Positions 21,905 to 54,135 of a DNA stretch of 64,000 nucleotides are shown piece by piece; the first letter of the stretch is position 1, and every line of letters begins with the position of its first letter. Where the stretch lies: assembly GCA_002070455.1 (NCBI GenBank), contig MWDG01000002.1, positions 7,062 through 71,061 on the forward strand, read 5' to 3'. Both the position numbers and the translations under genes were made by a program. A model generated the notes under the pieces. The model saw only the letters and a list, made by a program, of their open reading frames with translations. It ran no database searches and was not told the origin of the DNA. This DNA is from Deltaproteobacteria bacterium ADurb.Bin151. Lineage in GTDB: Bacteria > Desulfobacterota > Syntrophia > Syntrophales > Smithellaceae.

Positions 21905-23821
21905 TCAATCTTTCTTTTCCTTTTCCTCTTCATCAAAATCAAAGTATAGGGCTGTAAGCGGCGGCAGGTCGATGACTGCCCGGAAAGGATGTCCCGCAAA
22001 CTCCTGCGACACCGTCATAATCGCTTCCGTTCGGCATTGACTCGCACCGCCGAAAATCACGTCATCGCTTGTGAATACCTCCTGCAGTTTACCCGGGGAA
22101 GGCAACCCGATCACAAATCCCTCCACCGGCACGGGCGTAAAATTGAAAGCGCAGACACAGGGTCTTCCGTTTTCCCGGCCGCGGCGCAAAAAGCTTAACG
22201 AACTCTGGTTTGCATTATCCACGTTGAGCCAGGCAAACCCGCTCCAGTCGTCTTCGATCTGATAAAAAGCGGGATTCCCCTTGTAGAAAGCATTGAGCGC
22301 CTTGACGTAGTGCCTCATCTTGCCGTGGCTTTCGTATTCCAGCAGGAACCAGTCCAGTTGCTTCCGATAGTCCCATTCAATGAACTGTCCGAATTCGCTT
22401 CCCATAAACAGCAATTTTTTCCCCGGATGCGCATACATAAAACCCAGCAGCACGCGCAGGGACGTAAATTTCTCTTCATAAGAGCCGTACATCTTTTCCA
22501 GCAACGATTTTTTACCGTGCACCACTTCGTCGTGGGAATACGGAAGAATGAAGTTTTCGGAAAACGCGTAGAACATTGAAAACGTCATTTTATTATGATG
22601 GTCTCGCCGGAAATAGGGATCCATCGACATGTATTCGAGCGTATCGTGCATAAACCCCATGTTCCACTTGAACATAAAACCAAGCCCCCCCTCATAGGGA
22701 GGCTGTGTAATCATCGGGTACGAAGTTGATTCTTCCGCGATCGTAACGGCGCCGGGATGCCTCGTCAGTATCACGGAATTCAGCTTCCGCAAAAAGGCCA
22801 CCGCGGAGTGGTCAATATTGCCCCCGTCCTCGTTGGGCACATATTCGCCTTCATTGCGGGCGTAATCCAGATAGAGCATTGACGTGACGGCGTCCACGCG
22901 GATACCGTCAATATGATAGACATCAAAGAAAAACATCGCGCTGGAAATCAGGAAACTGACCACCTCGGGGCGACCGTAATTGAAGATCAGCGTTCCCCAT
23001 TGCGGATGATTGGACTGGAGCGGATTTTCATGTTCATACAGGCATGTTCCGTCGAAACGCGCCAGGCCGTGCTCATCCCTGGGAAAATGGGCAGGGACCC
23101 AGTCCATGATAACGCCGATTCCCTTCGCGTGCATGATGTCCACAAAATACATGAAATCCTGCGGCGTACCGTAACGGCTGGTCACGGCATAGAAGCCTGT
23201 CACCTGATATCCCCAGGAATCGTCGAGCGGATACTCCGTCACTGGCATGATCTCGACGTGCGTAAACCCCATCTCCACCAGGTAATCGGACAATTCGTCA
23301 GCCACGTCGCAGAGGTTTGCAAAACGGTATTCTTCGCGTTTGCGCCACGAGCCGATATGCATCTCGTATATGGCCATGGGATTGCTTAAAATATTCTGTT
23401 CCGAACGCCGCAGCAGGAAAGCCTCGTCATGCCATGCATAACCGCTTAATTTCCATACCTTCGATGCTGTCCTGGGGCGAACTTCGGCATGAAAGGCAAA
23501 AGGGTCGGCCTTGAGCACCGTCCGGCCATCGTATCCTTCAATCTGATACTTGTAGCAGTCCCCGTCTGTGAGTCCGGGAACAAAAGCGGCAAAGACGCCC
23601 GTATCAAGGCGTTCCATCGTGTTTTTGGAAGCATCCCAGGCGTTGAAATCCCCCACAACGCTGACGGCCCGCGCGTTGGGAGCCCACAACAGAAAACGGT
23701 GCATTCCCGTTTCACCGACCCGATGACAGCCAAAGGTCGCATAAGCCTGCTGGGCCTCCCCGATATTGAACAGGTAAATCTCGTCCTGATTAATATATTG
23801 TTGATCGTTCTTCAGTGTCAT
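21905..23821 (-). CDS. glgB: 1,4-alpha-glucan branching enzyme
   Basis: 638 aa. GH13 subfamily 9 pattern: DWVPAHF, GIRVDAV, IAEEST, SHDEV. Confidence 0.92.
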   Translation of the reverse strand: MTLKNDQQYINQDEIYLFNIGEAQQAYATFGCHRVGETGMHRFLLWAPNARAVSVVGDFNAWDASKNTMERLDTGVFAAFVPGLTDGDCYKYQIEGYDGRTVLKADPFAFHAEVRPRTASKVWKLSGYAWHDEAFLLRRSEQNILSNPMAIYEMHIGSWRKREEYRFANLCDVADELSDYLVEMGFTHVEIMPVTEYPLDDSWGYQVTGFYAVTSRYGTPQDFMYFVDIMHAKGIGVIMDWVPAHFPRDEHGLARFDGTCLYEHENPLQSNHPQWGTLIFNYGRPEVVSFLISSAMFFFDVYHIDGIRVDAVTSMLYLDYARNEGEYVPNEDGGNIDHSAVAFLRKLNSVILTRHPGAVTIAEESTSYPMITQPPYEGGLGFMFKWNMGFMHDTLEYMSMDPYFRRDHHNKMTFSMFYAFSENFILPYSHDEVVHGKKSLLEKMYGSYEEKFTSLRVLLGFMYAHPGKKLLFMGSEFGQFIEWDYRKQLDWFLLEYESHGKMRHYVKALNAFYKGNPAFYQIEDDWSGFAWLNVDNANQSSLSFLRRGRENGRPCVCAFNFTPVPVEGFVIGLPSPGKLQEVFTSDDVIFGGASQCRTEAIMTVSQEFAGHPFRAVIDLPPLTALYFDFDEEEKEKKD

Positions 23822-23841
23822 ATTTTATAATGCCATCCGTT

Positions 23842-25314
23842 TCATCCCGATCGGCCGAAAAGTCCAGTCACGCGGGCAAGTTCCTGGACAATTTTGTCGT
23901 CAAACTGGTCCGGCAGCAGGCGCCACTGCCAATTTCCCTGCGCTGTCTGCGGGCGGTTCATCCTCGCGGACGCGGGAAGCCCGAGAAAATCCTGCATCGG
24001 AATGACACAAACATCCGCCACAGATCCCATGGCCAGACGGATCAGCTGCCAGTGAACGCGCCTTTCATCGACTCCGTCAAGATAAGCATCCAAAAACGCC
24101 TTCTCCGCTGAACCCAACTCACGATACCAGCCGACCGTCGTATCGTTGTCGTGCGTCCCCGTGTAAACCAGGCAGTTTTTCTCATAGCGGTGCGGCAGGT
24201 AGCTGCTGCTGCCATCGGGCGCAAAGGCGAATTGCAGCACTTTCAATCCCGGGAAACCGGTCGCGTGCAGCAGTTCAAATACTCCCGGCGTGAGGTAGCC
24301 CAAATCCTCGGCAATGAGCGGCAGGTCTCCCAGTGCATCTTTGAGTTTTCGGAAAAAGTCGATGCCGGGTCCGGGGAGCCATTCCCCCGTCACGGCGGTT
24401 TTGGCGCCGGCGGGTATTGCATAGTATGATTCAAAAGCCCGGAAGTGGTCAACGCGCAAATGGTCGCACATGGACATTTGATGGGCGATCCGCCTGACCC
24501 ACCAGGCATAACCTGTTTTCCTGAGCGCATCCCAGTCATAGAGAGGGTTTCCCCACAGTTGGCCGGTTTCAGAAAAGTAATCCGGCGGGCAGCCCGCGAC
24601 CCGGCCCTGTGGATCAAGCAGATCGCGCTCCGTCCAGGCATCGGCACTGTCAGGCGCCATGTAGATGGGCATGTCGCCAATAATGTGGATTCCTTTTTCG
24701 TTTGCATACCTGTGCAAGGCCTCCCACTGACGGAAGAAAAGGTATTGAACAAATATATGATAATGGATTTCCTTTTTTAGACTTCGCGCGGCGGCTTCCA
24801 GGGCATCAGGCCGTCTCTCCATGATTTCCCGGGGCCATTCGTGAAAAGACTTCATTCCCTGTACACTTTTTAACACCATGTAAAGCGCATAGTCATCAAT
24901 CCAGTCTGCGTGCCGCCTCCTGAAAGACGCTATCTCGTCCGCAAGGCCATCTGCACTGTGTTCGTAGGCAAGATGCAGCACCCGGCACTTGCCGTCAAAC
25001 TGCGCATAATAATCCACCGCACACGGATCACCCATGAAGAGGCGGTCACACAAATCGAGTGCTTCCCGCGGTAAAAGGCCTTGTTGATACAAATCATTAA
25101 AATCAATAAAGTAAGGGTTGCCCGCAAAGACGCTGAACGCCTGGTAGGGGGAATCCCCGAATCCCGTCGGCGAAATGGGCAGAATCTGCCAGTAAGTCTG
25201 ACGGCTTGCCTGCAGCCGATCCACAAATTCACGCGCGCCGGCCCCCAGCGTTCCTATGCCAAACCTGCCCGGCAGTGAAGAAATGCCCATCAATATGCCG
25301 CTTCCTCTTTTCAT
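23842..25314 (-). CDS. malQ: 4-alpha-glucanotransferase (amylomaltase)
   Basis: GH77 motifs GILMGISSLPG, LRVDHFRAF, IAEDLG, YTGTHDNDT. Start uncertain between 25314 and 25341. Confidence 0.9.
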   Translation of the reverse strand: MKRGSGILMGISSLPGRFGIGTLGAGAREFVDRLQASRQTYWQILPISPTGFGDSPYQAFSVFAGNPYFIDFNDLYQQGLLPREALDLCDRLFMGDPCAVDYYAQFDGKCRVLHLAYEHSADGLADEIASFRRRHADWIDDYALYMVLKSVQGMKSFHEWPREIMERRPDALEAAARSLKKEIHYHIFVQYLFFRQWEALHRYANEKGIHIIGDMPIYMAPDSADAWTERDLLDPQGRVAGCPPDYFSETGQLWGNPLYDWDALRKTGYAWWVRRIAHQMSMCDHLRVDHFRAFESYYAIPAGAKTAVTGEWLPGPGIDFFRKLKDALGDLPLIAEDLGYLTPGVFELLHATGFPGLKVLQFAFAPDGSSSYLPHRYEKNCLVYTGTHDNDTTVGWYRELGSAEKAFLDAYLDGVDERRVHWQLIRLAMGSVADVCVIPMQDFLGLPASARMNRPQTAQGNWQWRLLPDQFDDKIVQELARVTGLFGRSG

Positions 25315-25534
25315 GATTGACAGCATACACGAGTTTGGCATTGATGACTATACGATTTTCTTTGCCTGAAACAATCATTGACATAATTCTTGACTTAACA
25401 GCGCTTCCGCACCTGTGGCTTGATATTGAAACCGGACAATGAAGGCTTCCGTTTGAATATTGCTTAAACGCATCTGAAGAATAAACGGTCGTGTGCGACC
25501 ATTCTGACCAATGCTTCGAAGGAATCAATTCCTG

Positions 25535-52709: not shown

Positions 52710-53144
52710 TTACGATTTCGTTGCGGGCTTACGCGTTTTCATATATTCATGTTCCATGGCAAGATGTTCGATATACTCGCTAAAAGTCCATGTAAGAGCC
52801 GTATCGGTTATGATGGCAAAGATCATATGTTGAGGATCGGGCAAAACGGCCTTGAAGCTCCTCATCACGTGCAGAACCTGCTCCCGTTCCATCGCGTTGA
52901 CCATCACCGCCCTGTATTGCCCCTGCACCGGAGAGGAGCCTTGCTTTTCTCTCACATTGTCCTGCCCCATCCCGCCCGCCGACACTCGTTCCAATACTTC
53001 TCCCACTCCCACAGGCATCATGTTTTCCGTAAGGGGAATCACTTCCAGTTCAATCTTTTCCGGATGAACTTCACAAAACGAAATCTTTCCCTTTTCTATG
53101 TCCTCGCGGGACAATCCCAGGGAAAAGCAAATGATCTTCTCCAT
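52710..53144 (-). CDS. Hypothetical protein (DUF3783-like C-terminus)
   Basis: ATG 53144 is preceded by AGGAGGGGAG. The C-terminal IFAIITDTALTWTFSEYIEHLAMEHEYM resembles the DUF3783 pattern from memory. Confidence 0.45.
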   Translation of the reverse strand: MEKIICFSLGLSREDIEKGKISFCEVHPEKIELEVIPLTENMMPVGVGEVLERVSAGGMGQDNVREKQGSSPVQGQYRAVMVNAMEREQVLHVMRSFKAVLPDPQHMIFAIITDTALTWTFSEYIEHLAMEHEYMKTRKPATKS

Positions 53145-53233
53145 GATGCAGTACTCCCCTCCTGTCATTCATTCCCGTATTGCGCCGATTTCAGAAAATC
53201 TGTGTTTCGTGATCGGCCCTGCAGCAGCCATCA

Positions 53234-53575
53234 TCAATCCTCTTTGCCGTCATCCTTCTTGCAGGCTTCAGCCAACCATTCATTGACACTTTTGTTTTCC
53301 TTCCTGGCGGCCACGGCTATCAAACTGTGCAAAGCCGCACTGATGCGTACCACTGAACGCGCTTCGGAAGGCTTTTCCGGTTCTTCGTTTCTTTCGGCGC
53401 AACCGGCCAGATAACCGTCAACGGCCTGCTCAAAAGCCTTTTTGATGCTCTCTACGGAATCACCCTGGAAACTGATTTCATGTTGAATATCGAAAACACA
53501 GCCAACAAGGCATCCCCGTTCCTCGCTGTATTCTATCTTTGCACAGTAGCCTTTATAGGTCATTGGCTTGCTCAT
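53234..53575 (-). CDS. hicB: HicB-family antitoxin (with C-terminal RHH)
   Basis: 113 aa. YKGYCAKIEYSEERGCLVGCVFDI...FQGDSVESIKKAFEQAVDGYL..C...G.EPEKP closely follows the HicB pattern. Confidence 0.85.
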   Translation of the reverse strand: MSKPMTYKGYCAKIEYSEERGCLVGCVFDIQHEISFQGDSVESIKKAFEQAVDGYLAGCAERNEEPEKPSEARSVVRISAALHSLIAVAARKENKSVNEWLAEACKKDDGKED

Positions 53576-53674: not shown

Positions 53675-54022
53675 TCAGGTTTTCATGATTTCTGCCAAAG
53701 CCTTACTGTCCACCCCAAAATAAACTTTTCTGTCAACCTTCACGATGGGACGGCGAATAAGGCGCGGTTCTTTCAGCATCAGGTCAATCAGATCTTTATC
53801 CTTGAGATTTGCCTGATCCAGCCCCAGTGACTTAAAACTGGGTGAACGAAAACTGAACATCTCCGAAGCCGGCTGTTTCTGCAGCAGTGCGTTGATTTCT
53901 GTACGTGTAAAAGGTGTCTTGAAAAAATCCCGTTCGTTGATTTCCACTTTCTTTTGCAAGAGATACTCCCTTGCTTTACGGCAGGTGTTTCATTTATTCC
54001 AGCAGAAAAAGTCAATTTTCAT
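53675..54022 (-). CDS. ArsC/Spx-family thioredoxin-fold selenoprotein (UxxC); in-frame TGA at 53990-53992
   Basis: ATG 54022 has AAGGAG 5 nt upstream. Translation: MKIDFFCWNK-U-NTCRKAREYLLQKKVEINERDFFKTPF...LIRRPIV.... The TGA replaces the first Cys of the family's CxxC (compare Spx SPSCTSCRKARAWL). The track only shows the TTG-started remainder (53675-53959). Confidence 0.8.
53956..53974 (-). promoter_or_regulatory. Candidate bacterial SECIS hairpin
   Basis: The mRNA reads GCAAGGG-AGUAU-CUCUUGC (7 bp including one G-U pair). It starts 16 nt after the UGA, and the apical loop carries GU 23-27 nt from the UGA. Confidence 0.55.
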
Positions 54023-54135
54023 ATCATCTCCTTATCGTGCAGTTTTAATAAAAACTTTATCACTCCAATCTACTTCTGTCATTCATTTTTTATTATCTCT
54101 GCAATTCAATATATAAACGATTACAGTCGCTATGT

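Follow-up and report, generated by a model that had tools for sequence, protein, structure and literature searches.

Gene anatomy and reading frame

The window, i.e., the whole stretch of 64 kb of DNA that was analysed, carries on its minus strand a gene for a small protein of the ArsC/Spx family, in which ten codons behind the start an in-frame TGA is found. The following features were assigned to this gene:

54054..54082, minus strand: match to a sigma-70-like promoter, ATGACA-17-TAAAGT plus TG extension (consensus scan only, weak evidence)
54028..54033, minus strand: Shine-Dalgarno sequence AAGGAG, 5 nt 5' of the ATG at 54022-54020
53675..54022, minus strand: predicted full selenoprotein CDS, 115 codons plus TGA stop, ArsC/Spx-family thioredoxin-like fold
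54002..54004, minus strand: Cys7 codon (TGC), by conservation the third redox-candidate residue of C7-x3-U11-x2-C14
53990..53992, minus strand: in-frame UGA, predicted selenocysteine codon 11, a TGA column in 50 + 6 related genomes, equivalent to Spx Cys10
53981..53983, minus strand: Cys14 codon (TGC), presumed resolving Cys of U-N-T-C, invariant in the alignments, equivalent to Spx Cys13
53956..53974, minus strand: SECIS-like hairpin, 8 bp, loop GUA at 53966-53964, 15 nt after the UGA
53957..53959, minus strand: artefactual TTG start of the ORF list and of gene calls, located inside the 3' arm of the hairpin
53675..53677, minus strand: the gene's own terminator, TGA, as read in the sequence

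Translation from the ATG at 54022 yields MKIDFFCWNK, followed by TGA at 53992-53990 and then by NTCRKAREYLLQKK / NTCRKAREYLLQKKVEINERDFF... up to the stop codon TGA at 53677-53675. In the mechanical ORF list the gene starts at the TTG at 53959 and the product has 94 aa. An earlier note on this DNA had already claimed that the ORF track starts at this TTG and thereby loses the N-terminal redox motif, that AAGGAG lies 5 nt before the ATG at 54022, and that MKIDFFCWNK, the TGA at 53992-53990 and a 115-aa product are read from there. The 94-aa ORF was confirmed, the AAGGAG was located at 54033-54028 (minus strand sequence), and the same translation was obtained. The position of the promoter match fits, as weak evidence, a transcript containing the ATG at 54022.

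A reassigned genetic code was ruled out because the gene's own stop is TGA, which is thus an ordinary stop codon here. As TGA acts as ordinary stop in the organism, codon 11 requires a local recoding signal.

Gene neighborhood

Two further genes follow downstream:

53234-53575, minus strand: orphan HicB-family antitoxin-like gene (PF05534, 2.4e-12)
52710..53168, minus strand: DUF3783 gene, the conserved downstream partner in the Smithella clade (Pfam PF12646, 4.2e-08)

Homologues of the DUF3783 gene were found 3' of the ArsC-like gene in at least ten loci of the Smithella clade (L001, L003, L005, L011, L012, L017, L018, L020, L027, and L029), and in L011 the gap between both genes is only 10 nt. 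A functional link of the DUF3783 gene with the ArsC-like gene can at most be inferred. The HicB-like gene sits between these two genes only in the window and in its five closest relatives (L001-L005), and no HicA-sized ORF adjoining it was noted.

In the Dehalococcoidia clade the partner is a different one. A gene with a Staygreen domain (PF12638, 2.3e-51) is located 0-2 nt 3' of the ArsC-like gene in Sec as well as in Cys forms (L022, L028, L036, L039, L042, L044, L047, L053, L054, L057, L063-L068, and L073; e.g., L063:2404-2865), so that ArsC-like and Staygreen genes form a tight conserved pair in non-phototrophs. Between the DUF3783 and the Staygreen protein no similarity was detected. Genes for Fur, rubredoxin, SOD, ferritin, a rubrerythrin-like protein, DJ-1/PfpI and peroxidase are encoded near the Dehalococcoidia-clade gene, which hints at an oxidative-stress flavor of this neighborhood.

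Elsewhere in the window an ordinary glycogen-metabolism pair is encoded at 21905-25341 on the minus strand, consisting of the branching enzyme GlgB (866 bits) and the 4-alpha-glucanotransferase MalQ (647 bits).

Protein family and fold

For the family searches the 115-aa product was used with U replaced by C. The product matches the Pfam family ArsC (PF03960) with 1.9e-17 and 63.8 bits, above the gathering cutoff of 24, and thus belongs to the ArsC family. The NCBIfam model TIGR01617 (Spx/MgsR) was passed by a small margin (78.7 bits at a cutoff of 75.05) and the N-terminal UxxC is present. The protein stays below the cutoffs of the glutaredoxin-coupled arsenate reductase ArsC (TIGR00014, 54.1 bits vs. 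106.05) and of NF041106, the curated model for ArsC-family (seleno)proteins (33.8 bits vs. 85). No ars operon genes were seen adjoining the ArsC-like gene.

The best sequence matches in the PDB are Spx structures (1e-11 to 1e-12, phmmer). In these alignments U11 falls on Cys10 and C14 on Cys13 of Spx, which bears out the proposal that the TGA replaces the first Cys of the Spx CxxC and gives UNTC. The structure was modelled for P0002, the closest full-length Cys homologue (73% identical). In the AF2 model of P0002 (pLDDT 93.8) residues 2-7 form strand beta1 and residues 12-23 form helix alpha1. The Sec/Cys residue thus lies at the N-terminus of the helix, the classic position of a CxxC motif. 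With this model Foldseek gave a TM of ~0.8 to Spx, YffB and ArsC structures.

The TGA codon in related genomes

A scan of species-representative genomes returned 62 loci, the hosts being Smithella, Smithellaceae, Syntrophales and Dehalococcoidia. In 50 genomes TGA is present at column 11, with the conserved residues M-K-x-D-F-[FY]-C-W-x-[KR] before it and x-T-C-R-K behind it, and six further, more distant loci carry TGA at the same column, which gives at least 56 related species-level genomes. A few relatives carry a Cys codon at this position, among them L007 (TGC) and L055 (TGT). Inspection of the aligned column for Cys or Sec and of residues 1-10 for conservation had been suggested beforehand, and on both points the homologues agree with a selenoprotein: the column holds TGA or, in the Cys forms, TGC/TGT, and the N-terminal peptide 5' of the TGA is kept.

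The ten codons 5' of the TGA vary mainly at third positions. For the codon TTT the fractions of non-consensus bases are 0.02/0.02/0.31 and for TGC 0/0.02/0.24, compared to 0.57 in the 5'UTR. This variation, together with the conserved peptide, argues that the region upstream of the TGA is translated within the same protein. In addition, a GGAG-type motif precedes the start codon in most of 51 orthologous loci. Cys14 is invariant in the orthologue alignments. Cys7 is invariant in one alignment (A4) and kept in nearly all loci; only the two most distant ones, L056 and L058, show W or H at this position.

The subfamily is common to Desulfobacterota (Smithella/Syntrophales) and Chloroflexota (Dehalococcoidia), with ~60-70% protein identity. 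Between the two phyla the position of the UGA is identical and the hairpin is near-identical (loci L001-L059), which suggests that gene and SECIS may have been transferred horizontally together.

Two diverged MAGs of Dehalococcoidia have an in-frame TAG (L041:3022-3024 and L057:3022-3024) in place of TGG, the conserved codon for Trp8. The sequence there reads TGC TAG GTG/GTA AAA TGA, and the remaining gene and the hairpin are intact. This could reflect a shared pseudogenization, read-through or a restart of translation. A reassignment of TAG in these two genomes is unsupported, as other ORFs of these loci still end in TAG.

The hairpin behind the UGA as candidate SECIS

Behind the UGA the mRNA can form a hairpin with the sequence GCAAGGGAGUAUCUCUUGC (GCAAGGG-AGUAU-CUCUUGC) at 53974-53956. 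The earlier note had described exactly this hairpin with GU in the apical loop, and both the sequence and the loop hold. Its spacing was slightly refined: the spacer is 15 nt long and the stem begins with the 16th nucleotide. Also the stem is slightly longer than assumed, as RNAfold adds one A-U pair, resulting in 8 bp and a GUA triloop.

The published bSECIS criteria for bacterial SECIS elements (PMC13188914) ask for an apical loop with 3-9 nt, an upper stem with 4-16 bp, G among the first two loop nucleotides, a UGA-loop spacing of 16-37 nt and an MFE of at most -7.5 kcal/mol. Checked by hand, the hairpin agrees with all of them: the loop is GUA (or A-GUA-U), the stem has 8 bp, the distance from UGA to loop is 23 nt and the energy is -8.6 kcal/mol. 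The proposed SECIS-compatible distance is therefore supported, as 23 nt lie inside the range of 16-37 nt (PMC13188914). The 19-nt hairpin alone has a z of -3.99 and none of 200 shuffled sequences folded as well. In contexts of 48-56 nt the fold energy is unremarkable (z -1.6 to -1.9), and thus the decisive evidence is comparative while the single sequence is suggestive. Rfam scans at the gathering threshold and at a permissive E-value returned chance snoRNA-like matches only, which says little either way.

For the analysis of covariation, 51 sequences of the Sec form were aligned starting at the UGA; in this alignment the helix is formed by columns 19-26 with 30-37. In these sequences 95.1% of the cells of the helix are paired, compared to 34-75% in controls with the 3' strand shifted by 1-3 columns. 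Two pairs show compensatory changes. Pair 21:35 occurs as GC in 31, AU in 10 and GU in 9 sequences, with one other combination, and pair 23:33 as AU in 26, GC in 23 and GU in 2 sequences without any other combination. Double-sided changes were counted in 33 cells, a number that was not attained in any of 500 shuffles (12.5 +/- 6.1). Column 23 corresponds to position 2 of an Arg/Lys codon and column 33 to position 3 of a Leu codon, where changes are synonymous. Because A:C never occurs between columns 23 and 33 even though the Leu position is synonymous, protein conservation is not the cause of this pairing.

In the Cys forms (10 distinct sequences) the helix is weaker, with a mean of 6.3 of 8 pairs and -4.45 kcal/mol, compared to 7.6 of 8 pairs and -7.75 kcal/mol in 52 Sec forms. 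In the Cys form L071 the same AKEFLS peptide is encoded with 5 of 8 pairs left. The Cys forms nearest to the Sec forms (L063, L065, and L073) still have a perfect hairpin, which would fit a recent Sec-to-Cys conversion or a partial coding constraint. As the hairpin overlaps with the conserved peptide A-[RK]-E-[FY]-L-[LS]-Q and is kept in these nearest Cys forms, part of its conservation is due to coding constraint. A check of the hairpin in orthologues had also been called for: it is kept with compensatory changes in the Sec forms and degraded in most of the Cys forms. An extended lower stem (columns 6-10 with 44-48) is paired in 75.7% and broken in the window itself; it is not claimed here.

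Annotation of the subfamily in public databases

The closest relatives in the protein database (72-99% identity) are all 89-96 aa long and start 3' of the UGA, whereas full-length relatives (114-116 aa) have C or W at the UGA column. The best 120 protein clusters include 73 truncated ones that begin behind the UGA, 29 with W and 15 with C at the Sec column. The named NCBI entries among these clusters are 94-aa fragments. The expectation that gene callers truncate or miss the gene thus holds for the 73 of the best 120 clusters that begin after the UGA.

The clusters with W at this column include P0009, P0010 and P0013. For one case, L067, the DNA was checked; the codon (L067:145-147) is TGA, and the stored protein disagrees with the code-11 translation. 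Evidently the W calls on short contigs were produced by gene calling with TGA as Trp (code-4 style), the DNA having been checked in this one case.

The public gene calls for this subfamily are therefore wrong, and the databases lack the active site of this redox protein, which is widespread in syntrophic and organohalide-associated anaerobes. With 51 sequences of the Sec form, 10 of the Cys form and a covarying SECIS, a clean comparative set is available, which could seed a curated model.

Selenocysteine machinery and the reading of codon 11

With E. coli SelA, SelB and SelD as tblastn queries no match for selA, selB or selD was obtained in the 64-kb window and 383 kb of related loci, a sample too small to be informative. 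ARAGORN detected no tRNA-Sec in the window or in the 383 kb of related loci, and the window is devoid of any tRNA gene. NCBIfam assignments for ten large or neighboring ORFs gave GlgB, MalQ, a TPR protein, an aminotransferase and others, with no Sel proteins among them. A scan of ORF pairs for other selenoprotein candidates with in-frame TGA in the window returned none, only read-through past ordinary stops. For related organisms the machinery has been described: Syntrophus aciditrophicus has SelD and 19 selenoproteins (PMC1794560), and a Smithella composite genome is listed among the genomes reported with a complete selABCD set (PMC5389517).

On the comparative evidence, UGA codon 11 of the gene at 54022-53675 (minus strand) is very probably recoded to selenocysteine, giving a 115-residue protein of the ArsC/Spx family. 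Three other readings of the codon have to be weighed against this.

Instead of selenocysteine, cysteine could be inserted at UGA11, either always or facultatively, by a selC* tRNA(Cys) with a UCA anticodon that is delivered via SelB or SelB* at the same hairpin, and the product would then have CxxC. Such selC* tRNA(Cys) genes are reported in delta-proteobacteria including the composite Smithella genome, a second selB adjoins selC* in Syntrophobacterales, and experiments with a Desulfobacterales tRNA demonstrated opal-to-Cys suppression (Mukai et al., 2016, PMC5389517); the sequence evidence presented here does not separate Sec from Cys insertion. However, genomes with selC* are reported to possess the full Sec apparatus as well (PMC5389517), the relatives that use Cys encode it by plain TGC or TGT, and the window contains no selC* gene. 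Moreover, the costly combination of UGA and hairpin is kept in at least 56 genomes including Dehalococcoidia, for which a benefit of Sec is the simplest explanation. We regard reading as Cys as very unlikely.

Still less probable is that the TGA is a real stop and that the product is the 94-aa protein starting at the TTG at 53959, the upstream ten codons being a leader ORF or non-coding. An SD-like AGGGAG is indeed located 6-7 nt 5' of this TTG, and the 73 truncated calls among the best 120 clusters in public databases correspond to such a product. Yet the TTG is TCG (Ser) in many orthologues, which cannot start there, and the ten upstream codons are conserved with variation at third positions behind a conserved SD and ATG. 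The Cys-form relatives are continuous full-length proteins, and judging from the structural model the 94-aa product would be without strand beta1, nearly all of helix alpha1 and the active site.

A pseudogene, or a normal CxxC gene in which the TGA arose through faulty sequencing or assembly, has only the stop codon itself in its favor. This reading is effectively refuted, since at least 56 species-level genomes that were assembled independently share the TGA in a frame that is otherwise intact.

Proposed mechanism

If codon 11 is read as selenocysteine, the hairpin at 53974-53956 would function in the mRNA as a bacterial SECIS, with its G-U-containing apical loop 23 nt after the UGA. With the ribosome paused at the UGA, it would bring in SelB-GTP-Sec-tRNA(Sec), and Sec would be inserted where translation would otherwise terminate. 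In the predicted product U11-N-T-C14 would stand at the beginning of helix alpha1, as do the CxxC of Spx and the catalytic Cys of ArsC, and the conserved Cys7 would be placed at the end of strand beta1. Most likely the protein would cycle between the selenol/thiol and the selenenylsulfide form and act as a small redox enzyme or redox sensor. SelB-dependent decoding, selenium incorporation, the selenenylsulfide chemistry and a physiological substrate are what we infer from these data.

A more far-reaching reading seems unlikely to us. The window gene may belong to an uncatalogued C-x3-U-x2-C subfamily of ArsC/Spx proteins, common to Syntrophales and Dehalococcoidia with ~60-65% identity, in which UGA and hairpin would serve a dual use, with Sec being inserted when selenium is available and Cys via selC* tRNA(Cys)/SelB* when it is not. 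As a further possibility, the protein might be a selenium-containing Spx-like redox-sensing regulator and not an enzyme.

Comparison with known systems

Spx of B. subtilis (PDB 1Z3E/3GFK) is the best match of the window protein in sequence and structure, with U11/C14 at the positions of C10/C13. The equivalents of R60 and of R91/R92 (RRP motif) are kept. In difference to Spx, Sec replaces Cys10, Pro51 is found at the position of Gly52 with two residues deleted beside it, and the C-terminal tail is absent (115 aa vs. 131 aa in Spx). In Spx, Gly52 is the contact to the RNAP alpha-CTD, and together with the C-terminal extension it marks an RNAP-binding regulator. Judging from the alignment, the window protein appears to have neither feature. 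With R60 and the RRP motif conserved on the one side, and Pro at the Gly52 position and the missing tail on the other, the protein may be either an enzyme or an Spx-like regulator.

The SECIS of E. coli fdhF is likewise a hairpin in the coding region directly 3' of the UGA with G-U in a small apical loop. In fdhF the G-U of the loop lies at +23/+24 from the U of the UGA, compared to +27/+28 here. The two hairpins share no sequence similarity, the upper-stem bulged U is missing in the window hairpin, and the loop is a triloop or pentaloop instead of GGUC.

The remark of the earlier note that ArsC-like selenoproteins are already reported is correct, as they have been catalogued since 2005-2008. 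A UxxS arsenate reductase selenoprotein was described from the Sargasso Sea (PMC1088965), ArsC-like selenoproteins from Desulfotalea psychrophila and Desulfuromonas acetoxidans (Zhang et al., 2006, PMC1794560), and "Arsenate reductase 2", a cd03032 Spx-like protein with UxxC, from the GOS selenoproteome (PMC2398784). In reviews of 2022 and 2026 NF041106 appears as "Arsenate reductase-like protein, UxxC"; it is likewise an ArsC-family UxxC protein, and with 33.8 bits vs. 85 the window protein lies outside this curated subfamily.

The ArsC-like/"Arsenate reductase 2" UxxC selenoproteins belong to the same ArsC/Spx fold family and have Sec as first residue of UxxC at the position of the active-site Cys. 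They also have a SECIS hairpin in the coding region, and known examples include delta-proteobacterial anaerobes. The window subfamily, which was compared to them by description, differs in an extra conserved Cys (C-x3-U-x2-C) and has its hosts in Smithella/Syntrophales and Dehalococcoidia. The window gene works like the known ArsC-like UxxC selenoproteins and extends this known class without adding a new principle.
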